From NCBI GenBank assembly GCA_963713495.1, contig CAVQLX010000015.1, positions 72,738-136,737 on the forward strand: DNA of 64,000 nt, in the 5' to 3' direction. Of the stretch, positions 24,257-49,572 are shown piece by piece (within the stretch, counting starts at the first letter, position 1; the number at the start of each line of letters is the position of its first letter). Made by a program: the position numbers and the translations under genes. The notes beneath the pieces are model-generated. The model saw nothing but the letters and a program-made list of their open reading frames with translations. It was not told where the DNA came from and did no database searches. The stretch is from an uncultured delta proteobacterium. GTDB lineage: Bacteria; Desulfobacterota; Binatia; DP-6.

Positions 24257-25553
<1,297 letters not shown>

Positions 25554-26216
25554 CTAGGAGGGCCGGGGCAACGTGCTCAGGACCACGACCCAGACCTCGG
25601 ACAGCAACGGCAGCACCGGGATGATGCGCTCGATGCGCAGCCCGGCGCTTGCCGCCTCCGCCGCCAGTTCTTGCCTCGTGAGCCGGGGGCTGCGTTTCAC
25701 GTTCGATCCGAGCCTGCGCCGCACGGCGCGCTGGAAGCTCTTCCAGGTATAGGGATGGCAGATGGTGGCGATCACGGGGCCGCGCGCCAGGTCGGCCAGC
25801 GTGCGCAGCACGCGTGGCCGTATGTCGGGCGGCAGGTGCATCATGAAGCGGCTGCTCACCACCGCGTCGACGCTGCGTGCGCGACACGGCGGTTGCTCCA
25901 GGTCGGCACGCACGTGACCCAGCGCCGCGCCGCGCCGGCGCGCCACTGCCAGCATCGCCGGCGAGATGTCGGCACCGATCACGCGGTATCCCTTGCGACG
26001 CAGGAAGCCCGAGAGGATGCCGGTGCCGCAGGGCGCGTCCAGGACGAGGCCTCCCGCGGGCACGGTCTCGAGGGCGCGCGACAGGGCACGCTCGAGCAGG
26101 CGGAGATTCAGCCGCCGCCCGGGACTCCCGTAGCGACGCCGCTCGTAGCGCTCGGCGTCGAACGCGCGATAGCCCCAGCGCGCGTCGTAGCCTCCGGCGA
26201 CGGGCTCGGCCATCAC
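25554..26216 (-). CDS. Class I SAM-dependent methyltransferase
   Basis: Motif I VLDAPCGTGILS and motif II-like region. 220 aa. Confidence 0.8.
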   Translation of the reverse strand: MMAEPVAGGYDARWGYRAFDAERYERRRYGSPGRRLNLRLLERALSRALETVPAGGLVLDAPCGTGILSGFLRRKGYRVIGADISPAMLAVARRRGAALGHVRADLEQPPCRARSVDAVVSSRFMMHLPPDIRPRVLRTLADLARGPVIATICHPYTWKSFQRAVRRRLGSNVKRSPRLTRQELAAEAASAGLRIERIIPVLPLLSEVWVVVLSTLPRPS

Positions 26217-26278: not shown

Positions 26279-27955
26279 GTGAGAGCGCCACTCCTCCTCG
26301 TCGCGGCATGCCTCGTCCTCTTCTTCACCGGGCTGGGAAGCGTGCCCTTCTACACCAGGGGCGAGCCGCGCGAGGCGCTGGTCGCCCGCGAGATGATCCG
26401 CACCGGCGAGTGGCTGGTGCCGGCACGGCCCGACGGCGAGCTGACGCGCAAGCCGCCGATCTTCTACTGGGCGGCGGCCACGTCCCTGTCGCTCCTGCCC
26501 GAGCGTCCCGAGCTGGCGGCGCGCCTGCCCTCCGCGCTCCTCGCCACCGCCGGCGTGCTCCTCACCTGGGCCGTCGTGCAGGCGAGCTTCGGCGCGGCGA
26601 TCGCGTTCCCCGCCGCGCTGATGCTCGCGACGTCGCTCGAGTGGATCCGCGCAGCCACCGTCGCGCGGGTCGACATGGCGCTCGTCGCCGGTCTCACGCT
26701 GCTCTTCGGCGCGTGGCTCGTCGCCCTGGCGCGCGACCGTCCCGCACTCGGACCGCGGTTCTTCGTGATGGCCGCCGCCGGAGCGGTCGTGGCGACGCTC
26801 GCGAAGGGGCCGGTGGCGCTCGTCCTGCCCGCGCTGGTCGCCGGCGTCCTGCTGGTGGCCCGGCGCGAGTGGCGCGTGCTGCGCCGGCTCGACGTGATCA
26901 CGGTCCTGCTCGTCGGCGGGGCCGTCGCCGGGCTCTGGTACGTCGCCGCGTTCGCCAAGCACGGCTGGGCCTTCTTCGACATCGTCGCCAAGGAGAACTG
27001 GCTCCGATACATCGACACGGAGGACGCGCGCACCGGTCACTCCCACGGGTTCATCTATCTCCCCCTGGTCGGCCTGGTCGGCCTGATGCCGTGGACGCCG
27101 CTCCTGCCCCTCGCCGGCGCGCCGCTCGTCGAGCCGTCCCGGCGCACGCCGGCTGTCACGTTTGCGGCGTCCTGGGTGGCGGTGACGCTGGTCTTCTTCT
27201 CGCTCGCCGCCGCGAAACGCAGCGTGTACCTGCTGCCGCTCTTCCCGGCGCTCGCCCTGCTGCTCGCGCTGGGAGTCGAGCAGCCGCCACGGAGCGGTCG
27301 GCTCGCGTGGCTGACGCGCGTGACGAGCGCGCTCTACGCGCCCGTGCTCGTGCTGCTCGCGATCGGCGCCGTCGCCCTCGCGTTCGGCGGCGACGTGGTG
27401 GGGCTCATCCGTCCATGGCTCAAGCCGCGAGACGCGCAGAACACGCTGGCGATCGTGTCGGTGGCCAGGCCCGCGACCCTCGAGCTCCTGGCCCTGGCCG
27501 GGCTCACGCTGGTGACCGCGGCGCTCGTGGTACGCGCCCGGCGCGCCGGCGACTGGCGTCGCCTGGTGATGATCGTCGCACTCCTGACGACGGCATGGAC
27601 CGCGGTCATCGGGGTGTGGCTGCGCCCGCCGCTCGGCCGCGCGGCGAGCCTGCAACCCTTCATGGCGCACGTCGCCGACGTCGTCCCGTCCGATGCCCCG
27701 CTGTACGCCTTCTTCACACCCGACGCAGGCCTCCGCTTCTACGCACCGCGCCGCCTCGAGGCCTGGCGAGCGACCAGCCGCGGACCGGCGTACCTGCTGC
27801 TCTGGGAGGACGAGCGCACGCGCTTGCGCGACGAGAACGGAAAGGCGCTCGAGCCGCTGGCGGTGAGCGAGGCGCGCGACGCGAGCCGGGGGCCGCTGAA
27901 CCTCGTGCTGGTGCCGCCCGACACGACCCTGCGCCCGCGCTCCGCCGCGCGGTGA
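26279..27955 (+). CDS. ArnT/PMT-like glycosyltransferase (GT39/GT83 family), polytopic membrane protein
   Basis: N-terminal TM1 followed by the ...RGEPREALVAREM... and ...KPPIFYW... motifs typical of 4-amino-arabinose / polyprenyl-phosphate sugar transferases. About 12 TM helices, and a periplasmic C-domain. Confidence 0.8.
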   Translation: MRAPLLLVAACLVLFFTGLGSVPFYTRGEPREALVAREMIRTGEWLVPARPDGELTRKPPIFYWAAATSLSLLPERPELAARLPSALLATAGVLLTWAVVQASFGAAIAFPAALMLATSLEWIRAATVARVDMALVAGLTLLFGAWLVALARDRPALGPRFFVMAAAGAVVATLAKGPVALVLPALVAGVLLVARREWRVLRRLDVITVLLVGGAVAGLWYVAAFAKHGWAFFDIVAKENWLRYIDTEDARTGHSHGFIYLPLVGLVGLMPWTPLLPLAGAPLVEPSRRTPAVTFAASWVAVTLVFFSLAAAKRSVYLLPLFPALALLLALGVEQPPRSGRLAWLTRVTSALYAPVLVLLAIGAVALAFGGDVVGLIRPWLKPRDAQNTLAIVSVARPATLELLALAGLTLVTAALVVRARRAGDWRRLVMIVALLTTAWTAVIGVWLRPPLGRAASLQPFMAHVADVVPSDAPLYAFFTPDAGLRFYAPRRLEAWRATSRGPAYLLLWEDERTRLRDENGKALEPLAVSEARDASRGPLNLVLVPPDTTLRPRSAAR

Positions 27956-27959
27956 TCGC

Positions 27960-28487
27960 TCAGCGCGTGGCGGACTTCTGCGCGCGGGCGCAGCTCGTCG
28001 CATCGCCGAGCCGGCAGCCGCTGTGACAGCCCCCCAGGTGCCCGGCGTCACATGCCTTGCGGTAGAGCGCGACGGCTCGCTGCTGGTCCCGCGCGACCCC
28101 GCGACCGTACTGGTACATGCGTCCGAGGTCCGCGCAGGACGCGAACAGGCCGGAGTCACAGCCGCGCTGGTAGCGCTCCACGTCCTGGGTGTCGTAGCTG
28201 CGCCCGACGCCGCGCCCCGCGCTGTACATCGTGCGCAGGTCGGAGCATCCCTTCGCGCTCCCGCCGTCGCACGCCTTGCGGAGCATCTCCACCGCGCGCC
28301 GGTCATTGCGCGCGACGCCGTTGCCGCCCTGCATGTAGACCGCACCCATGTTGGCGCAGCTCGCGGCGTCGCCCGCGTCGCAGCGCGAGCTGCAGCTCGC
28401 GACGTCGCCCGAGGGACACGTCGCCCGACCGGTCGCAGGCACGAGCACCACGGCGACCACCAGCAGCGCGGCGTCCAGACGCATCAT
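27960..28487 (-). CDS. Sel1-repeat (SLR) secreted protein
   Basis: Signal peptide MMRLDAALLVVAVVLVPATGRA and four Sel1-like repeats (A..MLRKACDGG..KGC, YQRGCDSG.. etc.). The start at 28487 is preferred over 28592 because the latter would overlap the divergent TPR gene. Confidence 0.7.
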   Translation of the reverse strand: MMRLDAALLVVAVVLVPATGRATCPSGDVASCSSRCDAGDAASCANMGAVYMQGGNGVARNDRRAVEMLRKACDGGSAKGCSDLRTMYSAGRGVGRSYDTQDVERYQRGCDSGLFASCADLGRMYQYGRGVARDQQRAVALYRKACDAGHLGGCHSGCRLGDATSCARAQKSATR

Positions 28488-28546
28488 TCCGCTCTCGCCT
28501 CCCCGGCAGTAGCACGGCGCGGCGGAGCGATCCAGAATGAACCGCA

Positions 28547-29170
28547 GTGCGTCGCCCGCCGATCCCCGCTCTGACGCTCCTCGTCCTCGCACTGCTCGCG
28601 GCAGGTGCGCCGGCCACCGATCCGCCGGGAACGGCGCGGTCGCGTGAGGCGCTCGCGCTCTGCAACCGCGCGCAGGACGCGCCGCCCGGGGAGCGGCCGG
28701 CCATGCTGAGCCACAGCCTCACGCTGGCCGACGAGGCGGTCGCCGCCGACGAGGACGACGCCCTCGCGCACTTCGCCAGGTTCTGCGCCCTCGGAGAGCA
28801 GGCGCGCCTCGCCGGCACGAGCGTGACGAGCCTGCTGAAGCTGCGTCCCATCCGGCAGGCGGTGGACCGCACGCTCGCCCTCGCGCCGGATTTCCCGCCC
28901 GCGCTCCTCGGCAAGGGCGCGCTGCTGCTCAGCATCCCGTGGCCGCTCGGAGGCGACGTCGCCGAGGGTGAACGGCTGGTGCGGCGCGCGCTGGCGATCG
29001 ACCCTGGCTACTTCGACGCGCGCATGCGACTCGCCGAGACGCTCGCGGACCACGGACAGAAGGCGGACGCGCGCGCGGAAGGGCAGCGCGCGCTCGAGAC
29101 TGCCGAGCACGCGCACGACGCGGACGACGTCGCCGACGCCCGGCGCTTCCTCGCCACGCTGGGAGAGTGA
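28547..29170 (+). CDS. Secreted TPR-like helical repeat protein
   Basis: GTG start and signal peptide RRPPIPALTLLVLALLAAGAPA. Helical repeat composition. Confidence 0.55.
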   Translation: MRRPPIPALTLLVLALLAAGAPATDPPGTARSREALALCNRAQDAPPGERPAMLSHSLTLADEAVAADEDDALAHFARFCALGEQARLAGTSVTSLLKLRPIRQAVDRTLALAPDFPPALLGKGALLLSIPWPLGGDVAEGERLVRRALAIDPGYFDARMRLAETLADHGQKADARAEGQRALETAEHAHDADDVADARRFLATLGE

Positions 29171-29175
29171 GCAGC

Positions 29176-30468
29176 TCAGAACGGGTAGTCGATGCCCGTG
29201 AACACCTTGAGGCCCTCGTCGCCGCGGCCGACGTCGACGAAGGCCAGGATCTGCGGGCGCACGATGCCGCGGAAGCCGAGGCCGTAGTCCCAGTGGAGAT
29301 CGCCGACCGGGTTCGTCGTCACGCCCTTGAACACCTCCCCGGCGTCGATGAACGGCGCGAGCTCGAGCTCGGCCTTCACGCCGAAGAGGCGGTGCTGGTA
29401 GACGTTGGTGCGAAGCTCCAGGGAGCCGACGCTGCGGTTGAACCCGATGAAGCGGTCGCCGCCGTAGCCTCGCAGCGAGTCCCGGCCGCCGAGGGAGCTG
29501 CGCTCCCAGAAGGGCGTGTCGCTCGGCCCGCTGACGTAGTCGAGCGTCCCGCGCATCGCGATGATCGGGTTCTTCTTCTCGCCTCTGAGCGGGATGTAGC
29601 CGCGCGTGTCCAACCCGAACTTGGTGTACGACGTCGAGCTGCCGAGCGCCCGGTCGGCCAGGTCGAAGTAGAGACGCGAGAGCGCGCCCTTTGAGGGGAG
29701 ATCGATCGAGTCGCGCGTGTCGTAGCCGAACTCGACACGGTGCGAGAAGTAGTGTCCCGGGAAGCGGCCGCGATTGAACGTGTTCGTGTTCCGGATGTGC
29801 TCCTGCTCGGCGGGCAGCGTCGGGTTGCAGTACGGCCCGGTCGCCGTCGGTCCGCACGACGTGAGGAACGGCACGCCGCTCACCTGGCCCGCTGAGGTGC
29901 CAAAGCGGCGGATGTCCATGAGGTACGAGACGTAGACCGTGGGCACGAGCCAGTAACCCGGCTGCACCCAGCCCTCCAGGTTCCGGCTGGTGTAGTTGGC
30001 CTCGTTGCTCTGTTTCGAGTGATTGCCGAAGCCCCAGAAGCGCTCCGTCGAGTCCTGCGCGAAGGAGCCCCACCCGTGCAGGAACGCATGCGCGTCGAGC
30101 AGGCTGCGATCGTGGTACTCCGCCTCGTACTCCTCGTCCTTCGTCGTCGACTTCCCGAGCGCGATCTTGTAGCGCCGCAGGTCCGTGGGGTAGCCGAAGA
30201 CCCGGAAGACGGGGAAGATGCCCTTGGTCGCGTTGTAGCGGATGTCGGGCGCGACCATGTACTGGATCTCGCTCTGCTCGTTCAGGAACATCCACACGCC
30301 CATCACGCCGTAGGTGTTCCCCTCGTTGGGATCGAGGATGATCTCCGGCACGGGCACGAAGCTCACTTCGGCCCGGGCCGCAGCGACGCAGCCCAGCCAC
30401 GCGGCGAGGACGAGCGCGATCAGCCCGCGGATCGCGTGCCGATGATGTCGCGGTTGGTGAGCAGCCAT
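29176..30468 (-). CDS. Outer-membrane beta-barrel protein (Omp85/surface-antigen-like), C-terminal Phe
   Basis: Signal peptide MAAHQPRHHRHAIRGLIALVLAAWLGCVAAARA. Alternating amphipathic beta-strand pattern, glycine/aromatic-rich, ends ...FTGIDYPF. Confidence 0.6.
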   Translation of the reverse strand: MAAHQPRHHRHAIRGLIALVLAAWLGCVAAARAEVSFVPVPEIILDPNEGNTYGVMGVWMFLNEQSEIQYMVAPDIRYNATKGIFPVFRVFGYPTDLRRYKIALGKSTTKDEEYEAEYHDRSLLDAHAFLHGWGSFAQDSTERFWGFGNHSKQSNEANYTSRNLEGWVQPGYWLVPTVYVSYLMDIRRFGTSAGQVSGVPFLTSCGPTATGPYCNPTLPAEQEHIRNTNTFNRGRFPGHYFSHRVEFGYDTRDSIDLPSKGALSRLYFDLADRALGSSTSYTKFGLDTRGYIPLRGEKKNPIIAMRGTLDYVSGPSDTPFWERSSLGGRDSLRGYGGDRFIGFNRSVGSLELRTNVYQHRLFGVKAELELAPFIDAGEVFKGVTTNPVGDLHWDYGLGFRGIVRPQILAFVDVGRGDEGLKVFTGIDYPF

Positions 30469-32163
30469 CGGTCTCCAGAGCGGTCGAGAACGTGGAACGG
30501 ACCCGGCACGAGGCCGTCGGGCGTATCGCGCCGACGCTGCGGGTCGGAGACGAACGCGAGCGCGTCCGGTCCGCTCCAGCGCCTGGCGAACTCGGCGCGC
30601 TCGAGGAAGAGCGCGTCGCGGTACGGCTCGAGATACGTCGGCGGTGTGAAGCGCGGCGGCGCGAGCATGGTGATGCGCCGGCGGGTGTAGTACGCGAGGG
30701 CGCCGATGATCTGATACTCCTCGGGCGCCTCGAACACGATCTCCACCGAGCCGGGAATGCGCGCGTCGATGACACGCGCCAGCGGCCGCCACGAGAAGAA
30801 CGGTTCGGCCTCGGCCTGGGCGCGGAGAACGATCGCCATCATCGGCAAGCCGACCGTCACCAGCGCGATGCCCACGCCCGCCGCCGTGTGCCGTCGCACC
30901 GCCCAGGCGAGGATCGCGCCGCCGAGGAGCGTCACCACCGTGCTGGCCGGCAGGAGGTCGAGCAGCGCCGGCATCGCCTTGATCCAGTAGACTCTCGCGA
31001 GCAGGTCGTGCGCCCAGAACGCGCCGACGACGCCGGCGGCGAGGAGTACCACGGCGATCGTGCCGAGCCATGCCCATGCCAGCGGACCCACCACGCCGGC
31101 CGCGAGCCGCCGCGAGCCTCGCGCGGCGAGCAGCGCGACGGCCGGCAGCGTGGGAAGCGAGTAGTGCTCCAGGCGAGACGGCGCGGCGGAGAACATGAGC
31201 ATGATCGCCCGCGATCCACGTCCAGCAGAAGAAGACGCCGTGCTCGATCGCGCCCGCGTCACGCCGGCGGCCGCGCAGCGCCTCGCGCACCGTGAAGGGC
31301 ACCAGGACGATCCACGGCAGCCCGCGCCCGAGGAACATCGACCAGAAGACCTTGAGCGAGTCACCGACCGAGTCGCGCGGCAGCTTCTTGTCGAAGAAGA
31401 AGAGCAGGTGCTGGTTGACGACGTAGTCCCACGCGAAGCCCGGGTGTCGCATGGCGACGGCGACGTGCCAGGGCGCGGCCACGAGCAGGAACACCGCGCT
31501 GCCGGCGAGCGGCTGGAGCCGCCAGATGCCACGCCAGCCGTGATCGCGGACGGTGCACACCACCACCGGGATCGCGACGACGGCGACCGGAACGGCGCCC
31601 TTCGCCATGAACCCGATCGCCAGCGATGCCCATCCGAGCGCCAGCCAGGGCGTGCGGCGTCGATCCGGCGCGCCCTCTGCGAGCCGCCAGCAGTAGAGAG
31701 CCGCCACCACGGATGCCACCAGCACGCCATCGGGGCGCAGCGTGCGGGCTTCGAGCACGAAGCCGAACATCGTCGCGAGGAAGGCGCCCGCGATCAACCC
31801 GGTGACGTCGTCGAAGAGTCGGGCACCCAGGCGGCAGGTGAAGAACACCGACACCATCGCCGCGAGCACGCTCGCGACTCGCGCCCACTCGTCGCGAGCA
31901 CCGAGCGCGAACGCGCCTGCCGCGAGCCAGTACATCAGCGGCGGCTTGTTCAGGAACAGCGTCTGATTCATCTCGGGCGTCACGAGGTCGTGGCGCACGA
32001 GCATCTCGCGCGCCACCTCGGCGTAGCGTCCTTCGTTGTCGAAGAACCCGGGACGATCGAGGTGGATCGACGCCAGCGATCCGAACGCGAGCGCGAGCAG
32101 GAGAGCGGCCCCCCAATGCGTCCGACCCTGCCCGCCAACCCGCACATCCGCGTCCTTTGCCAT
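30420..32163 (-). pseudogene. Second ArnT-like GT83/GT39 glycosyltransferase, apparent frameshift near 31205
   Basis: N-terminal 320 aa (...FFDNEGRYAEVAREM...NKPPLMYW...) are in the 32163 frame up to FCWTWIAG. The continuation IMLMFSAAPSRLEHYSLPTLPAVALL... through the C-terminus is in the 31730 frame. Confidence 0.7.
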
Positions 32164-32306
32164 GGGCTCGCAAAAGTCAACGCGCGGCCTTGCGTGTCAA
32201 GGCAGTGCCCGCTAATGTCGCGCGAATCAAGTCAAACGCCATGCAACGAGTGGTGGGGCTGGCAGGGCGGCCCGCAGCGCGGTCACGCGCTCGGACGCGG
32301 GTGCGC

Positions 32307-33393
32307 ATGATCGAGCTGGGCCGTGAGTATCACGGCGTCCGGCGCGAACTGCTCGATGCGTGCGAGCGCGTGCTCGATCGCATGCAGCTGCTGAATGGCG
32401 AGGAGCTGCGCGCCTTCGAAGCCGAGATGGCGGCGTTCGTCGGCACGAAGTACGTGAAGGGCGTCGCGTCGGGCACCGATGCGCTCCGCCTCGGCGCGCG
32501 CGCGGCAGGCGTTCGCCCGGGCGACGAGGTCCTCATCCAGGCCAACGCGTTCGTGGCGGCCGTCGAGGCGCTCGTCGACTGCGGGGCGCGACCGGTGGCG
32601 GTGGACATCCGCCGCGACGATCTCGGTCCCGACCCGGAGCATCTCGCCGCGCTCGTCGGACCCCGGACCCGCGCCATCCTCGTGGTCCATCTCTACGGGT
32701 TCCCGGTCGACATGGATCCGATCGTCGCGCTCGCTCGCGAGCGCGGCCTGGTGGTGATCGAGGACTGCTCGCACGCCCATGGCGCCACGCTCGACGGCCG
32801 CTCCGTCGGCAGCTTCGGCGCCGCCGGCGCGTTCAGCCTGGGCGTGGTGAAGAACCTCGCCGCGTATGGCGATGCGGGCGCGGTGAGCACCGACGACCCC
32901 GCCGTCGCCGAGCAGGTGAAGCTGCTCGGAACCCACGGCCAGGTGCGAAAGAACGAGCACGCGTACTACGGCGGGAACAGCAGGCTCGACGAGCTGCACG
33001 CCGCCATGCTGCGGGTGAAGCTCGGACGGCTGGAGCCTCGCAACGCGCGGCGCGCCGAGATCGCGGCGTACTACTCGAGCCACCTGGCCGGCCGCGTCGA
33101 GCACGCCGTTCGTCGATCCGCGCCGCACGCACGTGTACCACCAGTACGTCATCCGCACTCCCGTTCGCGAAGCGCTCCAGCGCCACCTCGCCAACCACGA
33201 GATCGAGACCGGCATCCACTATCCGGTACCCATCCACCGGCAGCCCGCCTGGCGCGACGCGTTCGGCGAGGCCCCCCGACTGCCGCAAGCGGAGCTGGCG
33301 GCCGACGAGATACTCTCGCTGCCGGTGCACCCGGATCTGACGGATGCCGAGGTCGAGCACGTGGCCGAGAGCGTGGCGGGCTTCTTCGACTGA
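32307..33393 (+). pseudogene. DegT/DnrJ/EryC1/StrS family PLP-dependent sugar aminotransferase (ArnB-like), apparent 1-nt insertion near 33105
   Basis: MIELGREYHGVRRELLDACERVL...GEELRAFE N-terminus, with the PLP-lysine region ...SLGVVKNLAAYGDAGAV. The C-terminus PFVDPRRTHVYHQYVIRT...EILSLPVHPDLTDAEVEHVAESVAGFFD is in the +1 frame (track ORF 33133..33393). Confidence 0.75.
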
Positions 33394-34421
33394 TGCGCCT
33401 GGCCGCGCCCCGGCCGGCCCTCTCCATCGTCGTTCCCGTCTACGACGAGGAGGGGAACGTCGGGCCACTGCACGAGGAGCTCACGCAGGTGGCGCTGAGC
33501 CTCGCGCGCCCCTACGAGCTCGTGTTCGTGAACGACGGCAGCCGCGACCGGACGCTCGAGCGCCTCGAGGACATCGTCGCGCAGGATCCGCAGGTGCGGG
33601 TCGTCGACCTCGACGGCAACTTCGGCGAGGCCGCCGCGCTGTCCGCGGGGTTCGAGGCGGCCCGCGGCCCGGTGGTGGTCACGCTCGACGGCGACGGTCA
33701 GAACGATCCCCACGACATCCCGAAGCTGCTCGCGAAGCTCGACGAGGGCTACGACGCGGTGAGCGGCCGCCGCCGCGCGCGAGAGGGGAAGTTCGTCACG
33801 CGGGTGCTGCCGTCGTGGGTGGCAAACCGGCTCATCGCGCTGGCCACGCGCGTGCCGGTCTACGACTGCGGCTGCGGGCTGAAGGCCTATCGCCGGGAGG
33901 TGGTCGCCGGCGCGCAGCTGCCACGCGGCATGAACCGGTTCCTGCCCGCGATCCTCGGCGTGCGCGCCGGGCGTGTGGCGGAGATCGAGACGAAGGATCG
34001 GCCCCGTGGCTCGGGCAGCTCGCACTACGGGCTGTCACGCGTCGGCGTGGTCTTTCGCGATCTGTTCGCGCTGCCGCTGCTCGTGCGCCGGCCCGCGCCG
34101 GGACACGTGACGGCGGGCGTCTGCGCCTCGGCCGCGGTCGTCCTCGCGGGTCTCTCGATCGCGGTCGCCTGGACGCGGATGGCGGTCCCGGCGGGGCTGC
34201 TCGCGCTCGGCGCGGCCATCGCCGCGGCCATCGGTCACAACGTCGCCCGCTTCGCGGACGCGCAGCGATACGGCGTGTTCCGCGTGAGGAGGATTCTGCA
34301 TGGACGCACAGCACCCGAGCATCGCCATCGTGGGAGTAGGGTACTGGGGAAAGAACCTCCTGCGGACATTCGGCCGGCTCTCCGGCGCACGCGTCACGAC
34401 CCTCTGCGATCTCGACCCTGA
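33393..34421 (+). CDS. GT2 polyprenyl-phosphate glycosyltransferase (ArnC/DPM1-like)
   Basis: The ATG overlaps the DegT stop (TGATG). SIVVPVYDEEGN, DGD...D motif, C-terminal two TM helices. The end may be earlier than 34421 if another indel is present, since it overlaps the next gene by 122 nt. Confidence 0.75.
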   Translation: MRLAAPRPALSIVVPVYDEEGNVGPLHEELTQVALSLARPYELVFVNDGSRDRTLERLEDIVAQDPQVRVVDLDGNFGEAAALSAGFEAARGPVVVTLDGDGQNDPHDIPKLLAKLDEGYDAVSGRRRAREGKFVTRVLPSWVANRLIALATRVPVYDCGCGLKAYRREVVAGAQLPRGMNRFLPAILGVRAGRVAEIETKDRPRGSGSSHYGLSRVGVVFRDLFALPLLVRRPAPGHVTAGVCASAAVVLAGLSIAVAWTRMAVPAGLLALGAAIAAAIGHNVARFADAQRYGVFRVRRILHGRTAPEHRHRGSRVLGKEPPADIRPALRRTRHDPLRSRP

Positions 34422-35319
34422 TCGGCTCGCGGCGGCGCGGGCCGAGCACCCCGGCCTGCGCTGCACGGACGATTTCGCCGCGCTCACCGCACGCGCGGAC
34501 GTCGACGCGATCGTGATCGCCACGCCGCCGTCGCGGCACCACGCCATGGCCCTGGCGGCGCTCCGCGCTGGAAAGCACGTCTGGGTGGAGAAGCCGCTCG
34601 CCCTCGCCGCGGCGGACGGCCGCGAGCTGGTCGACGCCGCCGCGGCCGCCCACCGGGTGCTCTTCGTCGACGAGACTTTTCTCTACGATCCCCTGGTGCG
34701 CGAGATGAAGCGCATCATCGACGACGGCGGTCTGGGCGACGTCATGCATCTCTCCTTCGAGCGCCTGGGCATGGGCCGCATCCGGCGCGACTCGAACGTG
34801 TGGTGGAACTCCGCCCCGCACGATCTCTCGATCCTCTTCCACCTGGTGCCGCGGCCGGTCACGGCCATCCGCGCGCACCAGCACACCTACCTGCAGCCGG
34901 GCATCGCCGACATGGTCACCTGCGACCTCGAGCTCGAGGGCGGCGTGTCGGCGCACATCTACCTGAGCTGGCTGCACCCGGAGAAGACCGCGAAGGTGGT
35001 GGTGGTGGGACGCGAGCGCATGCTCGCCTACGAGGGACGCTTCGAGAAGCGCGGCATCACCCTCTACGACTACACGCTCGACCTGACGCCGCCTCCCCGG
35101 TCGGACCGCGGCGCGGTGCCCATCGTGCCGGTCTCGGCGTTCTCCGGCCGTGTCCTGGAGGTTCCTGCCGGCGACGAGCCGCTCGCGCTCGCCGCAACGC
35201 ACTTCGTCGAGTGCATCCGGGACGGCGTCGAGCCGCTCACCAGCGGCGCCCGCTCGCTCCGCGTCGTCGAGGTGCTCGAGCAGGGCGATCGAGGGGCCAC
35301 GCGCGGGGGCGTCGCGTAG
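34300..35319 (+). CDS. Gfo/Idh/MocA family NAD(P)-dependent oxidoreductase (sugar-nucleotide dehydrogenase-like)
   Basis: RBS GAGGAGG 6 nt upstream of the ATG. SIAIVGVGYWGKN Rossmann motif and EKPLA motif. Confidence 0.85.
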   Translation: MDAQHPSIAIVGVGYWGKNLLRTFGRLSGARVTTLCDLDPDRLAAARAEHPGLRCTDDFAALTARADVDAIVIATPPSRHHAMALAALRAGKHVWVEKPLALAAADGRELVDAAAAAHRVLFVDETFLYDPLVREMKRIIDDGGLGDVMHLSFERLGMGRIRRDSNVWWNSAPHDLSILFHLVPRPVTAIRAHQHTYLQPGIADMVTCDLELEGGVSAHIYLSWLHPEKTAKVVVVGRERMLAYEGRFEKRGITLYDYTLDLTPPPRSDRGAVPIVPVSAFSGRVLEVPAGDEPLALAATHFVECIRDGVEPLTSGARSLRVVEVLEQGDRGATRGGVA

Positions 35320-36327
35320 TGTCCGCCGGCGGCGAGACGCGCCGCCGGATCCTGAGCCTGCTGTCACTCGCGGCCGGACTCTCGTTGCTCGGCTGGCTCC
35401 TGCACCACACCGGCTTCGAACCCGTGTGGCAGCGCCTGCAAGTGCTCGGCTGGTGGGCTCCGCTGGTCTTCCTGCCGTATCTCGTGGTCGCGATCGCCGA
35501 CGCCCGTGGCTGGCGTCTCGCCCTGCCGTCCAGCCACGCGCGGGCGCATCCCGCTTCCGGGCCTGATGCTCACCCGCATGGCCGGCGAGGCGGTGAACAG
35601 CCTCACCCCGGCGGCAGCGCTGGGCGAGCCGGTCAAGGCGTACCTGCTGCGGCCCTGGCGCGTGACGGGATCCGAGGCCTTCGCCTCGGTGGTCATCTCG
35701 AAGACCGCGCTCATCGCCTCGCAGAGCCTCTTCACCGCGCTCGGCATCGCCGCGCTGATGGCGCGGATCGGCCGGCCGCGGCTCGCGCTCGGCTGGCTGG
35801 TGGTCCTCGTGGTCGGCTGCGTGGTCTTCACCATCGCGCTCGTCTGGGTGCAGCATCGAAACCCGGGCGCCACGCTGTGGCGACTCCTGCGGCGCGTGGC
35901 ACCCCGATCCCGGCTGGTCGATCGGCTCGAGCTCGGCAGCGCCGCGTTCGACCACCGGCTGCGCGAGTTCTACAGCGGAGAGCCGCGGACGTTCGTGCGC
36001 GCATCCACCTGGCACTTCACGGGGTGGCTCCTCGGCGTCGCCGAGGTGTTCGTCATGGTGGCCCTGATGGGCCGCTCGGTGTCCTGGCTCGACGCCTTCG
36101 TCATCGAGACGCTGGCGCAGCCCATCCGCGCGGCGTCCATCGTCGTCCCCGCAGGCATCGGGACCCAGGAGCTCGGCGGCGTGTGGCTGTGCACCTTCCT
36201 CGGCATGGCCGAGGCCGACGCCGTCACCCTGTGGATCTTGAAGCGCGCGCGCGAGGTGCTCTTCGACGGCGTGGGACTCGCCTATCTCGCACAGCACGGC
36301 GGCCGGCGCGCGGTCAGGGCGGAATGA
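35319..36327 (+). pseudogene. Flippase-like membrane protein (lysylphosphatidylglycerol-synthase TM region / UPF0104 family), apparent frameshift near 35535
   Basis: GTG overlaps the upstream stop (taGTGt). N-terminal TM region ...LLGWLLHHTGFEPVWQRL...ADARGWRLALP is in frame 0. ...LTRMAGEAVNSLTPAAALGEPVKAYLL... through the end is in frame 1. Confidence 0.6.
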
Positions 36328-37325
36328 CGATCGAGCGGCGGCAGCTCGGGCGGAGCGGCCTCGAGGTGACGCGCCTCGGACTCGGCCTCGCCGCCATCGG
36401 CCGCCCCGGCTACATCACGCTCGGCCGGGCACGCGATCTCCCGGGGCCGCGCAGCCCGGACGCCATGTGGGCACGCTGTGCCGAGGTGCTCGACGCGGGG
36501 CGCGCTGCCGGTCTCCGCTACCTGGACGCTGCGCGGAGCTACGGGCGGGCCGAGGAGTTCCTCGGACGCTGGCTGGTGGAGCGCGGCGTGGCGCGCGACG
36601 AGGTGACGGTCGGCAGCAAGTGGGGCTACCGCTACACGGCGGGCTGGACGGTGGATGCGCCGGTGCACGAGCAGAAGGAGCACTCGGTGGAACGATTCCG
36701 GGGACAGCTCGCGGAGACGCGCGCGCTGCTCGGCGATCGGGTGGACCTGTACCAGATCCACAGCGCGACGGTGGAGTCGGGGGCGCTCGGCGACGCCGCG
36801 CTGCTCGTCGCGCTCGTCGAGGCGCGGCGGCGTGCCGCGTTCCGTGCCGTCGGGGTCACGCTGAGCGGTCCGGAGTCGGCGCGCGCACTCGAGCTGGCGC
36901 TCGCGGCGCGCGTCGACGGCGAGCGTGTCTTCGACGTCGTCCAGGCGACCTTCAACGTCCTCGAGCCGTCGCTGGGTCCGCGGCTCGCGACGGCACACGA
37001 CGAGGGACTGGGCGTGATCGTGAAGGAGGTGCACGCCAACGGCCGGCTCGCCGACACGAACGACCGACCCGACGACCGCGTGCTGCTCGCCGGGCTGCAC
37101 GCGGCCGCGCCCGGAGTGCCGGTCGACCGGCTCGCCGTCGCCTTCGTCCTGGCGCATCCATTCGTCGACGTCGCGCTCTCGGGCGCGGCGACGGTCGCGC
37201 AGCTCGCGTCGCACGCCGCGGCAGCCGGGACGCCCGCGCCGGATGGCGTGCGCGAGCGGCTGGCCGCGCTCGCCGAGCCTCCCGAGCGCTACTGGCGTAC
37301 CCGCGGCGCGCTGCCCTGGAGCTGA
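36324..37325 (+). CDS. Aldo/keto reductase
   Basis: ATGA overlap with the upstream stop. LGRSGLEVTRLGLG...SKWGY...IVKEVHANGRL AKR motifs. Confidence 0.85.
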   Translation: MTIERRQLGRSGLEVTRLGLGLAAIGRPGYITLGRARDLPGPRSPDAMWARCAEVLDAGRAAGLRYLDAARSYGRAEEFLGRWLVERGVARDEVTVGSKWGYRYTAGWTVDAPVHEQKEHSVERFRGQLAETRALLGDRVDLYQIHSATVESGALGDAALLVALVEARRRAAFRAVGVTLSGPESARALELALAARVDGERVFDVVQATFNVLEPSLGPRLATAHDEGLGVIVKEVHANGRLADTNDRPDDRVLLAGLHAAAPGVPVDRLAVAFVLAHPFVDVALSGAATVAQLASHAAAAGTPAPDGVRERLAALAEPPERYWRTRGALPWS

Positions 37326-37987
37326 GCCGCGCGCAGCACGCGCGCGAGGAGCACCAGGGTCACGATCCAGAACACGTGCGCGCCGACCGCGGCCGCCGGC
37401 ACGAGCCACCCGAGGCGGCCCGCGAGCGCGAACGCGACCGGGAAGACGTACCAGTCACGCGTCGTCAGCGGTCCGAGCACCCCGTCGAGCACCCGGTTCT
37501 CCCAGCGCGCCACGCGGCGGCGGCGCGATTCCGTGACCTCGCTCCACGTGATCGCTGCGAAGGCGCCGGCCACGCCGAGGCCGAGCGCCCCGAGGACGGG
37601 CCATCCCGGCACGGGCCCCGACCGCACCAGCCGGCGCACGATGCCGGCGAGCAGCGCGACGGCCACCAGCGTGTCGCCGGCGACGTCGAGCACGTGACCG
37701 AGCCGGGACTCGGCGTGCCGCAGACGCGCGAGCTCGCCGTCGCAGCAATCGAGGATGCCCGACGCGACGAGACACGCGACGCCCGCGAGCACACCCGCCG
37801 CGCCGCCGCTCCCCACCAGCCACCCGCCAGCGACGCCGATCGCCGCGCTCGCGAGCGTGACCGCGTTGGGCGAGATCGGCGTGGGCAGGAGCGCTCGCGT
37901 GAGCGGACGCGCGAGCGGGCGGTAGAGCAGCCGGTCGATGTAGCCGTCGCGCGGGTTGCCCGGGACCGGTTCCGCGCCGCTGGTCAT
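37289..37987 (-). CDS. CDP-alcohol phosphatidyltransferase family membrane protein
   Basis: Signature DCCDGELARLRHAESRLGHVLDVAGD (D-x2-DG-x2-AR...G-x3-D-x3-D) and about 6 TM helices. The ATG overlaps the upstream stop (ATGA). Confidence 0.8.
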   Translation of the reverse strand: MTSGAEPVPGNPRDGYIDRLLYRPLARPLTRALLPTPISPNAVTLASAAIGVAGGWLVGSGGAAGVLAGVACLVASGILDCCDGELARLRHAESRLGHVLDVAGDTLVAVALLAGIVRRLVRSGPVPGWPVLGALGLGVAGAFAAITWSEVTESRRRRVARWENRVLDGVLGPLTTRDWYVFPVAFALAGRLGWLVPAAAVGAHVFWIVTLVLLARVLRAAQLQGSAPRVRQ

Positions 37988-38721
37988 GCGTCGCGGAGCG
38001 CCTCGATGCGCGGCAGCACGTCCCGCTCCGCGCGGACGACGTCGTCCGGAAAGTCGATCTCGATCCACGGCAGGCCGTCGACCCGTTCGAATCCCACCTC
38101 CACCCGTGCCAGCAGCGCGGGGTACACCTCCTCGTGCTCGATGCCGGTGTCGCCGGCCTGCACGCGCGCCTCGAGGAGCTCGCGCAGGAGCGACGCCGCC
38201 GAAGCGGAGAGCTTCAGGAATCCGATCGACTCGCCCATCAGCTCGTACCCGGGCGCGCCGCCGCGCACGATGTCGCGCACCCGGCCGTCGCGCACCAGCA
38301 GCATCTGCTCCTCCCCGGTGTTCTCCTGCGCGGCGTCGAGGAGGAAGCAGTCGGCGTGCGGCGAGCGGACGAGGCGGTCGAGCATCACCTGCGCACAGAG
38401 GACGTCCGCGTCCATGACCAGCACCGCCCGGTCGAGCGCGTCCCGCGCCGTCCACAGCGAGAGGATCGCACCCTCGCGGAAGCGCGTGTTGGTCACGCAG
38501 CGCACGTCGATGCCGCGCACCCCCGCCGCCAGCGCGGCGCGCACGAGATCGTCCCCGAAGCCGGTGACCACCACGGCCTCGCGCACGCCGGCGGCCGCGA
38601 GGCCATCCAGCAGCCGGAGCAGCAGGCTGCGCCCGGCGATCTCGATCAGACACTTCGGCGTGCCGCCCGACGTGCCGAGGAGACGCTTGCCGACGCCGGC
38701 GGCGAGGATGATCGCGGTCAC
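37984..38721 (-). CDS. MobA-like / LicC-type sugar- or headgroup-phosphate nucleotidyltransferase (cytidylyltransferase candidate)
   Basis: VTAIILAAGVGKRL...TPKCLIEIAGRSLL N-terminal NTP-transferase motif. The GTG overlaps the stop of the transaminase (GTGA). Confidence 0.75.
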   Translation of the reverse strand: MTAIILAAGVGKRLLGTSGGTPKCLIEIAGRSLLLRLLDGLAAAGVREAVVVTGFGDDLVRAALAAGVRGIDVRCVTNTRFREGAILSLWTARDALDRAVLVMDADVLCAQVMLDRLVRSPHADCFLLDAAQENTGEEQMLLVRDGRVRDIVRGGAPGYELMGESIGFLKLSASAASLLRELLEARVQAGDTGIEHEEVYPALLARVEVGFERVDGLPWIEIDFPDDVVRAERDVLPRIEALRDA

Positions 38722-42086: not shown

Positions 42087-42647
42087 CTAGCGGCGAGGCG
42101 GTCCGAACGTGCGCTCGAAGAGCCCCTCGACGGCGGCGCGCCCGTTGTCGCGCACGAAGCGCGTGCCGGTTCCCGTGAAGTGCGGGTGCGTGATGACGGG
42201 AACCTGCCCCGCCTGCCACGTCTCGCCGGTCCACTGGAACCAGCCGTCCTGATCCTGATCGAACACGTGCAGCCGCTTGTTGAAGAACTTCGCGTACTCC
42301 GCGCTCACGCCGGTTCCGCCGACCACGGTCCCGTCGGGCTGGATCTTCCCCACCAGGAAGATGTCCTGCCCGTTGTTCACCTGATGCCAGATGCTCTGCA
42401 GGACCTTCCGGAAGAGGGGCGTGTCGGGGTAGCGGCGGTTCATCAGCTTGCTGACGTACGTCAGGCTCACGTCGCCGTGCTTCAGCTCGGCACTGGTGAG
42501 CACGCGGATGCCGCGGGTCCTGGCATCACCGTGTCCCTCGAAGGTGAAGTTCACCTCCTCGATGCCGTAGCGCTCCGCGGTCTCGCCGAACGCTGCCTCG
42601 GCGCCCTGGGCGGCACCGCTGAAGAGGATGCATTCCTCGGGCTTCAC
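42087..42647 (-). CDS. Hypothetical protein, possible Rossmann-like (SLOG/DprA-LOG-like) fold; compositionally atypical
   Basis: Intact 186-aa ORF. N-terminal ILFSGAAQGAEAAFGETAERYG resembles SLOG-type nucleotide-binding loops. It is enriched in K/N/F/Q/W relative to its neighbours. Confidence 0.45.
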   Translation of the reverse strand: MKPEECILFSGAAQGAEAAFGETAERYGIEEVNFTFEGHGDARTRGIRVLTSAELKHGDVSLTYVSKLMNRRYPDTPLFRKVLQSIWHQVNNGQDIFLVGKIQPDGTVVGGTGVSAEYAKFFNKRLHVFDQDQDGWFQWTGETWQAGQVPVITHPHFTGTGTRFVRDNGRAAVEGLFERTFGPPRR

Positions 42648-46721: not shown

Positions 46722-46823
46722 CGGAGAATCCGCTTATAGCCCCCGGGCACGCAGGTGCAAGCCAGCGTTTGAGCAGGCGAGACGACAGGCCATCCGGGTA
46801 ACACCTCCGTAACGGTTGCGCGT

Positions 46824-46867
46824 CGCTGACCGGTCGGGTAGACGGCTGACTCACCGCTCGGTCAGCG
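46824..46867. promoter_or_regulatory. Stem-loop (9-bp perfect stem CGCTGACCG / CGGTCAGCG, 26-nt loop) in the divergent ppm/hpnJ intergenic region
   Basis: Read directly. Lies 60 nt upstream of the hpnJ ATG and about 100 nt upstream of the ppm start. Function unknown (leader structure or protein-binding dyad). Confidence 0.3.
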
Positions 46868-46926
46868 GTGGTGGGCCGTATGCCGCGTGGGATCGCGTCG
46901 CCGGCGAGGGGGGGAAAGGGAACCGG

Positions 46927-48384: not shown

Positions 48385-48385
48385 C

Positions 48386-49570: not shown

Positions 49571-49572
49571 GG

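Follow-up and report, generated by a model that had tools for sequence, protein, structure and literature searches.

A putative lipid-carrier-dependent amino-sugar pathway and a POTRA-less Omp85-like barrel in the cell envelope of Binatia

What would a cluster of glycosyltransferase, sugar-modifying and outer-membrane barrel genes do for the cell envelope, and on which acceptor would it act? The cluster lies at 26279-37325 of a 64,000-nucleotide stretch of DNA (the window). The source is an uncultured soil bacterium of the Binatia. A sequence-only reading had proposed that an amino sugar is made, loaded onto a polyprenyl phosphate, flipped and transferred to lipid A, a hopanoid or a protein. 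Searches with Pfam and NCBIfam domain models found all ten gene types which that reading had listed (Table 1). None of the locus proteins reached an NCBIfam equivalog cutoff, and each activity is thus assigned at the family level.

Table 1. Features of the locus and of lipid genes farther along the window.
Feature	Positions	Strand	Supporting match
PMT1, PMT_2 family	26279-27955	+	Pfam PMT_2
Sel1	27960-28487	-	Pfam Sel1
TPR	28547-29170	+	Pfam TPR_17/TPR_19
Omp85-like barrel	29176-30468	-	Pfam Omp85
PMT2, PMT/PMT_2 family	30420-32163	-	Pfam PMT and PMT_2
DegT	32307-33393	+	Pfam DegT, match split over two frames
GT2	33393-34421	+	Pfam Glycos_transf_2
Gfo/Idh/MocA	34300-35319	+	Pfam GFO_IDH_MocA N- and C-terminal domains
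LPG_synthase_TM / HpnL-like	35319-36327	+	Pfam LPG_synthase_TM
AKR (aldo/keto reductase), last gene of operon	36324-37325	+	Pfam Aldo_ket_red
Phosphonolipid operon: AEP transaminase-like Aminotran_5, cytidylyltransferase, CDP-alcohol phosphatidyltransferase	37289-39779	-	Pfam
Phosphonopyruvate decarboxylase and PEP mutase-cytidylyltransferase fusion	44018-46721	-	Pfam PEP_mutase and NTP_transf_3; tblastn with L060 Ppd protein
hpnJ	46816-48384	+	NCBIfam HpnJ, 694 (curated cutoff 577.6)
hpnI	48386-49570	+	NCBIfam HpnI, 383 (curated cutoff 310)
Membrane sulfatase/EptA-like gene	49573-51408	+	Pfam Sulfatase
hpnK	51396-52301	-	NCBIfam HpnK, 317.6 (curated cutoff 232.6)

The plus-strand operon runs DegT-GT2-Gfo-HpnL-like-AKR, not DegT-Gfo-GT2 as had been stated. 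The start/stop overlaps described for it are real: TGATG at 33393, where the stop codon of DegT overlaps the start codon of GT2, TAGTG at 35319 and ATGA at 36324. The GT2 and Gfo genes overlap by 122 nt in the window (about 77-122 nt across every locus), and GGAGG lies upstream of the Gfo ATG at 34300. PMT2 and the barrel form a separate pair on the minus strand. The convergent end of the operon was also correctly seen, the 3' ends of the AKR and CDP-alcohol transferase genes overlapping by 37 nt. AKR is present in five of the six close Binatia loci and missing from L004. Three long plus-strand ORFs (31195-32310, 32360-33340 and 33344-34339) were rejected as genes, having no Pfam family and the wrong third-position GC; the true genes at these places are read in other frames or from the opposite strand.

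The nature of the sugar is suggested by the first and third genes of the operon. The best solved relatives of DegT (7B0D, DesV, QdtB, WlaRG and WbpE) all score above ArnB, and the best NCBIfam model for Gfo is UDP-GlcNAc 3-dehydrogenase (126 bits, cutoff 450), followed by inositol dehydrogenase. DegT is predicted to be a PLP, DegT-family C-3 sugar aminotransferase, and Gfo/Idh/MocA an NAD-dependent sugar-nucleotide 3-dehydrogenase. With C-3 aminotransferases (DesV, QdtB, WlaRG and WbpE) nearest to DegT and a UDP-GlcNAc 3-dehydrogenase nearest to Gfo, a 3-amino-3-deoxy hexose is the probable sugar, and not Ara4N. The C-3 assignment is a ranking by similarity, PseC (a C-4 enzyme) is also a good NCBIfam scorer for DegT, and the top structure match 7B0D is labelled scyllo-inositol transaminase; an aminocyclitol may therefore be an alternative product.

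GT2 is closest to ArnC structures (E 2.5e-35), GtrB sll0501 and DPMS, and its sequence shows two hydrophobic helices at the C-terminus. It is predicted to be an ArnC/GtrB-like polyprenyl-phosphate glycosyltransferase. A whole-window search found neither a formyltransferase nor a deformylase, so GT2 would have to tolerate a free amine. The next gene encodes a membrane protein of the MprF-flippase/UPF0104 family, which scores 169.7 bits against TIGR03476 HpnL (cutoff 195.65). It shares 40-42% identity with the barrel-adjoining copies of group B loci and 29-31% with true HpnL. A neighbourhood of UPF0104, GT2 and PMT/STT3-like genes was earlier predicted to be a glycosylation module (PMC5898192). 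Going by the contexts of its relatives, the HpnL-like protein could alternatively flip a hopanoid or a phosphonolipid, which would leave the Und-P-sugar without an assigned flippase.

Both GT-C proteins have ArnT 5EZM as their best solved relative (E 3e-22 for PMT1 and 1.7e-23 for PMT2), and no solved PMT was found among their structure matches. We assign both to the ArnT type by this similarity. PMT2 retains the ArnT D-(N)-E-G-R-Y-A and xxxKP motifs as defined in PMC5377068 (D42-N-E44-G-R-Y-A and FLNK73P); in an alignment of 20 sequences, D145 never varies and Y335 is kept in 19. PMT1 has a first-loop TxGEPRE motif, with G28, E29, R31, E32, K58, D132 and R243 invariant among 41 aligned sequences and Y317 kept in 40. 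The first-loop Glu and the equivalents of ArnT K85, D158 and Y345 are thus invariant or nearly so in both families, whereas PMT1 has neither the Asp equivalent to ArnT D55 nor the Tyr of the RYA motif. The conserved GT-C catalytic residues, on which the proposed transfer step depended, therefore hold for the first-loop acidic residues and the K85/D158/Y345 equivalents but not for the first Asp of PMT1. By alignment, PMT2 keeps the catalytic residues and PMT1 is a conserved variant lacking that Asp. PMT2 is always found together with the DegT-GT2-Gfo triad, and PMT1 accompanies the barrel also in loci that lack the triad.

Synteny of the DegT-GT2-Gfo-HpnL-like core, the PMT2->barrel pair and PMT1 extends to six Binatia loci, in which the barrel protein shares 50-86% identity with that of the window. 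The overlap of the stop end of PMT2 with the barrel gene (49 nt in the window) is kept at about 40-49 nt in the six. The core recurs in rearranged order in L043, L045 and L047, accompanied by ArnA-like and ArnD-like genes, and even there the DegT-GT2-Gfo order is retained. This synteny and recurrence indicate a grouping beyond chance; part of the synteny could reflect inherited gene order, much of it lying within one class, Binatia. Together with a survey of 80 species-representative barrel loci, these data show that the core genes are co-conserved rather than scattered. Sel1 and TPR, which had been taken for partners, occur in none of the 80 loci, and TPR is confined to the window and the near-identical L001. 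Sel1 starts with MMRLD followed by a signal-like hydrophobic segment, in agreement with the L001 gene call, and TPR has the N-terminal signal-like segment MRRPPIPALTLLVLALLAAGAPA. Both are predicted to be secreted; they are accessory genes of a variable slot and lie outside the system.

The AlphaFold2 model of the barrel has a pLDDT of 88.9, and its strands begin directly after the signal peptide. Foldseek matched it best to the BamA/TamA/Sam50 barrels. The family (114 sequences) keeps the L6 LRG(F/Y) and F-x-(D/E)-x-G motifs, which are characteristic of Omp85 members that handle proteins. The model identifies the protein as a BamA-like, POTRA-less (noNterm) outer-membrane barrel of the Omp85 superfamily. 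In the survey, at least one lipid partner lies beside the barrel in 67/80 loci. An HpnL family gene adjoins it in 35 of the 80, an MmpL3-like exporter gene in 16, and a complete phosphonolipid operon in 13, in two gene orders; in Steroidobacteraceae the barrel is co-operonic with the same phosphonolipid gene set. The barrel also adjoins hpnIJK(L) in L055, L086, L087 and L088, and hpnJ in L039 and L043-L045. A GT-C gene adjoins it in 39 of the 80 loci and lies within 1.5 kb in 36, the copy immediately downstream being PMT1-type in nearly all of the 36.

The phosphonolipid operon, previously regarded as a mere boundary, lies beside the amino-sugar operon in 6/6 close Binatia loci, and such complete operons are co-operonic with the barrel in other lineages. 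Because the barrel family is co-operonic with lipid genes elsewhere and hpnJ, hpnI and hpnK also lie in the window, the locus belongs to a wider island of envelope-lipid genes (about 26-52 kb).

On balance, we lean towards a conserved, lipid-carrier-dependent amino-sugar modification system of the Binatia cell envelope, with the barrel on the same lipid pathway. In the cytoplasm, Gfo/Idh/MocA would oxidise C-3 of a UDP-hexose (UDP-GlcNAc is the probable one), and DegT would transaminate the keto group to give a 3-amino-3-deoxy nucleotide sugar. GT2 would move the amino sugar onto undecaprenyl phosphate, and the lipid-linked sugar would cross to the periplasmic leaflet, the HpnL-like protein being its probable route. 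PMT2 would transfer the sugar to a membrane-lipid acceptor, PMT1 would carry out a second, related transfer, and the barrel would act at the outer membrane. The order of steps proposed earlier fits the homologies to ArnC/GtrB, ArnT 5EZM and the MprF-flippase family. Since the locus sits in an island with phosphonolipid and hpnJ/I/K genes, a specialised envelope lipid is the likeliest acceptor, be it lipid A, a phosphonolipid-related species or an extended hopanoid (for example BHT-glucosamine or cyclitol ether). Among the acceptors first listed, the lipids, hopanoids included, gain support, and a protein, now less likely, loses it.

Several alternatives bear on this model. PMT-type O-glycosylation of periplasmic or outer-membrane proteins, such as the co-transcribed barrel or Sel1/TPR, would account for the match of PMT2 to Pfam PMT (PF02366), the protein-handling motifs of the barrel and the secreted proteins between the two GT-C genes. 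We judge it quite improbable, given that ArnT alone was found among solved relatives of the two GT-C proteins, that Sel1 and TPR are absent from the survey and that there are loci where the barrel has no GT-C gene and lies beside hpnIJK(L), phosphonolipid or MmpL genes. Slightly less improbable is that DegT and Gfo are a GnnB/GnnA-type pair making UDP-GlcNAc3N for a lipid A with a 2,3-diamino-glucose backbone, or make an aminocyclitol, and form no linear pathway with GT2 and the GT-C enzymes. The enzyme pair and chemistry predicted under this reading are the same, the 7B0D label and the second-best Gfo model point to inositol, and clusters of Gfo-like, CDP-OH and HpnL-like genes exist elsewhere (L011, L044). 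The overlaps that join GT2 to DegT and to Gfo, and the gene order held in rearranged loci, argue for one pathway, and there are no lpxA or lpxD genes nearby. Decay of the system in this strain hardly deserves credence, even with three of the ten genes out of frame. PMT2 (31207), DegT (33100) and the HpnL-like gene (35532) each contain a single additional base that breaks the frame (a G in PMT2 and an A in DegT, relative to L001), and the essential enolase (25305) and a CLC channel gene are broken likewise. As these genes share the fault and L001, a relative 97-99% identical, has none of the additional bases, the three frameshifts are assembly indels and not pseudogenes. Third-position GC is coding-like on both sides of every shift, and the relatives are long-read metagenome assemblies that themselves carry errors.

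A classical Arn-type modification of lipid A is the alternative we take more seriously, although we still think it unlikely. ArnT-like enzymes would put the amino sugar on the phosphates of lipid A or on the LPS core, lowering surface charge and giving cationic peptide resistance, with the barrel and the neighbouring lipid genes as bystanders. The kinship of both GT-C proteins to ArnT, the motifs of PMT2 and the closeness of GT2 to ArnC agree with it, as do the ArnA-like formyltransferase and SDR genes and the ArnD-like deacetylase that L043-type loci additionally carry. DegT and Gfo, however, indicate C-3 chemistry, no lpx/LPS genes lie near the barrel in the examined loci, and its conserved partners are hopanoid, phosphonolipid and MmpL genes. 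Compared with arnBCADTEF, the locus shares the ArnC-like GT2 and the ArnT-type GT-C but is not such a system: ArnA and ArnD were not found anywhere in the window, the locus has no ArnE/F-type protein, and the NCBIfam equivalog cutoffs of ArnB, ArnC and ArnT were all missed by a wide margin. The amino-sugar lipid pathway that we favour is of a kind already known; what is new is the partnership of the barrel with it.

Pfam and NCBIfam models recovered every gene family that the sequence-only reading had named at 26279-37325, and the outer coordinates were exact. The plus-strand genes had been read as one operon; five of them are tightly coupled, with junctions TGATG, TAGTG and ATGA and a 122-nt GT2/Gfo overlap, but their order is DegT-GT2-Gfo and not DegT-Gfo-GT2. 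The two ArnT-type GT-C genes (PMT1 and PMT2) had been placed on either side of the barrel and the Sel1 and TPR genes. These families are present, but PMT2 and the barrel form a separate two-gene unit on the minus strand, in which the genes overlap by 49 nt. The convergence of the operon end on a phosphonolipid operon was borne out, as AKR meets that operon with a 37-nt overlap of 3' ends. The partner in this overlap is the CDP-alcohol phosphatidyltransferase gene (37289-37325); the same overlap is seen in the relative's contig L002, and it leaves no space for terminators. No protein of the locus attains an NCBIfam equivalog cutoff.

Genes of the locus and of the adjoining lipid gene clusters
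Feature	Coordinates	Strand	Remarks
PMT1	26279-27955	+	
Sel1	27960-28487	-	
TPR	28547-29170	+	
Omp85-like barrel	29176-30468	-	
PMT2	30420-32163	-	split by indel at 31207
DegT	32307-33393	+	split by indel at 33100
GT2	33393-34421	+	
Gfo/Idh/MocA	34300-35319	+	
HpnL-like LPG_synthase_TM	35319-36327	+	split by indel at 35532
AKR	36324-37325	+	
Phosphonolipid operon	37289-39779		convergent neighbour of AKR
Ppd and Ppm-cytidylyltransferase fusion	44018-46721		
hpnJ	46816-48384		NCBIfam 694.2 bits, above cutoff of 577.6
hpnI	48386-49570		NCBIfam 383.3 bits, above cutoff of 310
Membrane-anchored sulfatase/EptA-like gene	49573-51408		between hpnI and hpnK
hpnK	51396-52301		NCBIfam 317.6 bits, above cutoff of 232.6

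The G+C content of the window is about 71%. Coding frames were set by third-position GC and Pfam, and frame-repaired protein sequences were used for the analysis of split genes. The enolase (24257-25532) and CLC channel (42644-43983) genes are split between frames, as are PMT2, DegT and the HpnL-like gene. Alignment to L001, a relative's contig 97-99% identical over this region, showed one extra base in the window at each of 25305, 31207, 33100 and 35532. The frameshifts could be read as real pseudogenes; this was rejected, as the enolase and CLC channel genes are likewise split and the extra bases are absent from L001. We treated the indels as assembly errors because an essential gene is hit, the coding signal crosses the breaks and the relatives' genes are intact. 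Bases are missing from the window relative to L001 at 28707 and 37327, and all the single-base indels between the two lie outside homopolymer runs. L001, and not the window, is out of frame at 28707, and the TPR ORF of the window retains its signal peptide. Errors are thus present in both assemblies, as the window is broken at some sites and L001 at 28707. Long plus-strand ORFs at 31195-34339 were rejected as genes, having no Pfam match and the wrong third-position GC. The out-of-frame GT2/Gfo overlap (34300-34421) measures 77-110 nt as called in L003, L005 and one more relative. It appears real, because Gfo must start no later than 34327 to include its Rossmann motif and GT2 shows no stop codon further upstream. 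A database lookup of the exact Gfo protein sequence returned no record. The named homologues of the window proteins come from uncultured "Candidatus Binatia" and long-read "MFD" metagenome-assembled genomes.

Scattering of the genes among orthologous loci, which would have spoken against the sequence-only reading, was not found. The core is shared, in a single layout, by six Binatia loci whose barrels are 50-86% identical to that of the window. A unit of AEP transaminase, cytidylyltransferase and CDP-OH transferase converges on the AKR - HpnL-like - Gfo - GT2 - DegT operon, which is divergent from PMT2 - barrel; the latter converges across a variable slot on PMT1, itself divergent from a methyltransferase - enolase unit. 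The exception to this co-conservation is the Sel1/TPR pair, which had been regarded as partners of the system and which none of 80 loci carries. In L001 the slot holds a sulfatase fragment, about 1.5 kb extra right after the barrel stop codon (window junction 29175/29176). The slot of L002 (11294-16787) contains an Asn-synthase-like amidotransferase, an HpnL-like gene, HpnR (hopanoid C-3 methylase, 825 bits) and HpnK (355 bits). The class I SAM methyltransferase gene (25554-26216), divergent from PMT1, is syntenic in all close Binatia loci, and a methyltransferase also adjoins hpnIJKL-barrel in the relatives' loci L055 and L087. It was rejected as a conserved member of the system, as the L055 copy is only 31% identical over 90 residues and gives no evidence of orthology.

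The 80 loci came from a survey seeded on the barrel with one genome per species, in which partner genes were scored by tblastn. They fall into four groups by barrel identity. Group A (at least 46%) has the full locus. Group B (38-44%), which includes Polyangiaceae and Thermodesulfobacteriota, has a minimal trio in which the HpnL-like gene is divergent from the barrel and the barrel converges on a PMT1-type gene. Group C (about 36%; L043, L045 and L047) has the barrel, Gfo, GT2, DegT, PMT1-type and PMT2-type genes together with an ArnD-like deacetylase and an SDR in all three, a formyltransferase in L043 and L047, and hpnJ in L043 and L045. This rearranged cluster (L043, 8421-20782) carries a fuller Arn-like set yet has Gfo, and its SDR is an epimerase/dehydratase. 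Group D (31-34%) comprises Steroidobacteraceae and other Gammaproteobacteria, in hpnIJK(L), phosphonolipid and MmpL contexts. Across the survey PMT2 always accompanies the DegT-GT2-Gfo triad, and PMT1 accompanies the barrel. A second cluster type was seen in L011 (10691-15525) and L044 (3193-6500), with a class-III aminotransferase, a Gfo-like oxidoreductase, a CDP-alcohol transferase and an HpnL-like gene; it could make a phospholipid whose head group is an amino alcohol or an aminocyclitol.

The best solved relatives of DegT are 7B0D, DesV, QdtB, WlaRG and WbpE, with ArnB much lower, and the named enzymes among them are all C-3 aminotransferases. The best NCBIfam model for Gfo is an archaeal UDP-GlcNAc 3-dehydrogenase. 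A Gfo-type 3-dehydrogenase paired with a DegT-type 3-aminotransferase is an established route to 3-amino sugars (GnnA/GnnB, WbpB/WbpE, RifL/RifK, NtdC/NtdA). From these relatives and the known pairing of the two families, we predict with moderate confidence that the sugar is not Ara4N but a 3-amino-3-deoxy hexose, for example GlcNAc3N. GT2 matched the solved structures of ArnC (cryo-EM; 2.5e-35), GtrB sll0501 (1.4e-28) and DPMS (8.9e-17), and two hydrophobic segments are visible in its C-terminal sequence. It is a predicted member of the ArnC/GtrB/DPMS class of polyprenyl-phosphate glycosyltransferases. An HpnI-like assignment was rejected, HpnI being absent from the NCBIfam matches of GT2. 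The stretch overlapping Gfo encodes an Arg-rich tail on GT2.

ArnT of Cupriavidus metallidurans was the only solved-structure match for both PMT1 and PMT2. We take D55, K85, D158, R270 and Y345 to be the key residues of CmArnT. Both proteins were mapped onto 5EZM (numbering offset 3), and conservation was scored in orthologues from related loci (PMT2, n=20; PMT1, n=41). D42, E44, R46, A48, K73-P-P and D145 of PMT2 are invariant (20/20) and Y335 is found in 19/20; K73, D145 and Y335 are the equivalents of K85, D158 and Y345. D42 is the D55 equivalent displaced by one residue, and is aligned directly in the rearranged group C proteins, which lack N43 and hence have a plain DE. The position of R270 is taken by F255, with K260 close by. 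R46-Y47-A48 and F-L-N-K73-P in the first loop of PMT2 match the RYA and YFEKP motifs of the first periplasmic loop of ArnT, which contain an essential Tyr and Lys (PMC5377068). PMT1, in 41 sequences, is a variant of its own that is strongly conserved and whose motif is T-x-G-E-P-R-E. It has an invariant G28 where ArnT has D55, and E29 is present. In R31-E32-A33 an invariant Glu replaces the Tyr of the RYA motif, and the second motif reads x-x-R/S-K58-P. K58, D132 and R243 are invariant (41/41) and Y317 occurs in 40/41. Loss of the DE and loop residues had been named as a sign against an ArnT-like function; the residues mapped do not speak against activity of PMT2 (D42 and E44 are invariant), and PMT1, with Gly for Asp, is ambiguous. 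The occurrence of two paralogous GT-C enzymes together, with a variant active site that is conserved, is new.

The HpnL-like protein scored 169.7 bits with the HpnL model TIGR03476, below the cutoff of 195.65; true HpnL proteins scored 243.5 (L055) and 312.2 bits (L060). Its identity is 40-42% with the barrel-adjacent copies of group B and 29-31% with true HpnL, a protein of no known function (10.1101/2025.07.29.667474; PMC12583986). The hpnJ/hpnI/sulfatase/hpnK cluster (46816-52301) is divergent from the PEP mutase fusion. The EptA-like enzyme could, speculatively, move aminoethylphosphonate from a phosphonolipid to an acceptor, as phosphoethanolamine is moved from PE. The phosphonolipid set of the window corresponds to the uncharacterised "Group 1 CDP-OH" clusters (PMC8942020).

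The barrel was modelled with AlphaFold2 from an alignment of 114 homologues (pLDDT 88.9, pTM 0.82); a model from 15 sequences was unusable (pLDDT 47). In the former the first strand begins at residue ~35, directly after the signal peptide, which leaves no POTRA domain. Foldseek gave a probability of 1.0 to BamA, TamA and Sam50. The L6 LRG(F/Y) and beta-13 F-x-(D/E)-x-G motifs are kept, with R333 and G377 in 114/114 and F373 in 110/114 homologues, and the score with the BamA equivalog is 48 bits (NCBIfam cutoff 297). By its modelled fold and its motifs the barrel is an Omp85-superfamily member and not a canonical POTRA-bearing BamA/TamA. POTRA-less proteins form the "noNterm" class in the classification of Heinz and Lithgow, with paralogues in Leptospira, and their function is unknown (PMC11358297). 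The centre of the barrel gene (29300-30200) differs from L001 by 13-22% of nucleotides, and its flanks by 0.3-2%. The pattern resembles allelic replacement, or else diversifying selection on a protein exposed at the surface, beside a variable slot.

The genomic partners of the barrel are consistent across lineages. In 67/80 loci it has one or more neighbours of the lipid head-group, flippase or lipid-export kind; a GT-C gene lies within 10 kb in 39/80 and an HpnL-family gene is present in 35/80. In 13 gammaproteobacterial loci, and in two gene orders, its direct same-strand neighbour is a complete phosphonolipid operon (CDP-OH transferase, true HpnL, cytidylyltransferase, Ppm-cytidylyltransferase fusion, Ppd and AEP transaminase). 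hpnI-hpnJ-hpnK-hpnL-barrel lie on one strand in L055 and L087, L086 and L088 show two further arrangements of hpnIJK with the barrel (with hpnL too in L086), and hpnJ is divergent from the barrel in L039 and L043-L045. An MmpL3-like lipid exporter accompanies the barrel in 16 gammaproteobacterial loci, directly downstream on the same strand in 11. This MMPL/RND transporter (in L061 at 11204-13399) has the trehalose-monomycolate exporter MmpL3 as its best solved relative; HpnN was rejected as an identity for these transporters, as it was not among the matches. No barrel homologue was found on plasmids of cultured bacteria, and the best 120 homologues per search contained no cultured host, all being from metagenomes or MAGs.

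In the best-supported mechanism, Gfo and DegT would make a nucleotide 3-amino sugar, GT2 would move it onto undecaprenyl phosphate, the HpnL-like protein would flip the lipid-linked sugar, and PMT2, possibly with PMT1, would transfer it on the periplasmic side. These four steps are predicted from family-level homology, operon coupling and synteny. The barrel may then take part in an outer-membrane step, as gene overlap and the recurrent neighbourhood suggest. The acceptor can be read in more than one way. ArnT-type chemistry suggests lipid A; the barrel partners in other lineages and the neighbours in the window point to a lipid related to hopanoids or phosphonolipids. The least supported reading is protein glycosylation. 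The substrate of the HpnL-like protein might be a hopanoid or phosphonolipid and not the Und-P-sugar.

We also consider, as a tentative and rather doubtful proposal, that the barrel is the outer-membrane part of a pathway dedicated to the biogenesis of specialised lipids with modified head groups (extended hopanoids, phosphonolipids or amino-sugar glycolipids), working with an inner-membrane HpnL-type flippase, GT-C or MmpL3-like exporter; it would be an Omp85 for lipid, not protein, traffic. If so, it would account for the outer-membrane step that hopanoids so far lack and for what HpnL does, and would extend the Omp85 family beyond protein insertion. A barrel acting on lipids would be a testable candidate for the outer-membrane delivery or organisation of head-group-modified hopanoids or phosphonolipids. 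Three long-standing puzzles are physically linked here, in several bacterial lineages: what HpnL does, what the abundant Group 1 phosphonolipid clusters make and how POTRA-less Omp85 proteins function. Since hopanoid derivatives serve as major biomarkers in geochemistry, any new hopanoid conjugates with an amino sugar or a phosphonate would matter for biomarker interpretation. Lipid-carrier-dependent surface modifications (Arn, Gtr, Rgt) control charge, permeability, and antibiotic or peptide resistance. The locus predicts a 3-amino-sugar version of such a modification in Binatia, a widespread uncultured class of soils and sediments.

The locus shares with the Arn system (arnBCADTEF; L-Ara4N on lipid A) a DegT aminotransferase, an ArnC-like Und-P GT2 and an ArnT-type periplasmic-face GT-C, and the equivalents of ArnT K85, D158 and Y345 and of the first-loop Glu are conserved in its GT-C proteins. 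It differs by Gfo, which predicts C-3 and not C-4 chemistry, by two GT-C paralogues and by an HpnL/MprF-type flippase-like protein, and adds the Omp85 barrel and AKR. ArnA combines a UDP-GlcA decarboxylase/dehydrogenase with an N-formyltransferase, and ArnD is a deformylase of the polysaccharide deacetylase family. tblastn with L043 proteins found no match to ArnA (formyltransferase and SDR; E <= 1e-3) or to the ArnD-like protein in the window, and the locus has no ArnA-type domain. No gene for a small heterodimeric flippase of the ArnE/ArnF type is among the ten genes of 26279-37325, where LPG_synthase_TM is the only flippase-like protein. Scores with the Arn equivalogs are 189 bits vs 631 for ArnB, 130.5 vs 529 for ArnC, and 88 (PMT1) and 101.9 (PMT2) vs a cutoff of 567 for ArnT. 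Judged by its predicted proteins, the locus is not an Arn pathway on ArnA, ArnD, ArnE/F or equivalog cutoffs.

GtrA/GtrB/GtrX, CsbB/YfhO and Pgf-type systems follow the same logic: a cytoplasmic GT2 charges polyprenyl phosphate with a sugar, the loaded carrier is flipped by a membrane protein, and the sugar is transferred outside the cytoplasm by a GT-C. The archaeal AglD-UPF0104-PMT/STT3-like neighbourhood also has this GT2, flippase and GT-C logic, with the same UPF0104 flippase-like family as the locus (PMC5898192). The locus differs from all of these by amino-sugar synthesis genes within the operon, a second GT-C and an outer-membrane barrel as conserved partners. GnnA/GnnB, WbpB/WbpE and RifL/RifK-NtdC/NtdA pair the same two enzyme families, which in these cases put a 3-amino group on a (nucleotide) sugar; the similarity is at family level, in libraries with no GnnA/GnnB model or structure. 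Here the pair brackets a polyprenyl-phosphate GT2, so the product is predicted to be lipid-linked and not a direct lipid A, O-antigen or antibiotic precursor. Of the genes for BHT-glucosamine and the cyclitol ether (hpnI/hpnK/hpnJ and hpnL), the window has true hpnJ, hpnI and hpnK (46.8-52.3 kb). The flippase-like protein is closely related to HpnL and scores below its cutoff, and barrel homologues adjoin hpnIJK(L) in Steroidobacteraceae-type genomes; GT2 is ArnC-like and not HpnI-like. We know of no published hopanoid pathway that includes a GT-C enzyme or an Omp85 barrel.

With noNterm Omp85 proteins the barrel shares a BamA-like barrel without a periplasmic domain, with the L6 and beta-13 motifs kept; it differs by having no DUF5982 match and by consistent lipid head-group, flippase and lipid-export neighbours, which are undescribed for the Leptospira group. 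Group 1 CDP-OH clusters, described mainly in Burkholderia, are matched in the window by the Ppm-PntC fusion, Ppd, AEP transaminase, a second cytidylyltransferase and the CDP-alcohol phosphatidyltransferase (PMC8942020; PMC6697681); HpnL is a further member of the set in Steroidobacteraceae. The clusters of this window and of Steroidobacteraceae lie beside the barrel, those of Binatia beside the amino-sugar/GT-C module too; the descriptions that we consulted mention no barrel. Our literature searches found no prior report linking hopanoid genes with Omp85 or phosphonate clusters, or Binatota with hopanoids or phosphonates. The GT2, flippase and GT-C design is of a known kind (Arn, Gtr, Rgt, Pgf and the archaeal AglD-UPF0104-PMT/STT3-like neighbourhood; PMC5898192). 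What is new is the predicted 3-amino sugar and, most of all, a POTRA-less Omp85 barrel as a conserved partner, which has further ties to hpnIJK(L), phosphonolipid and MmpL genes.
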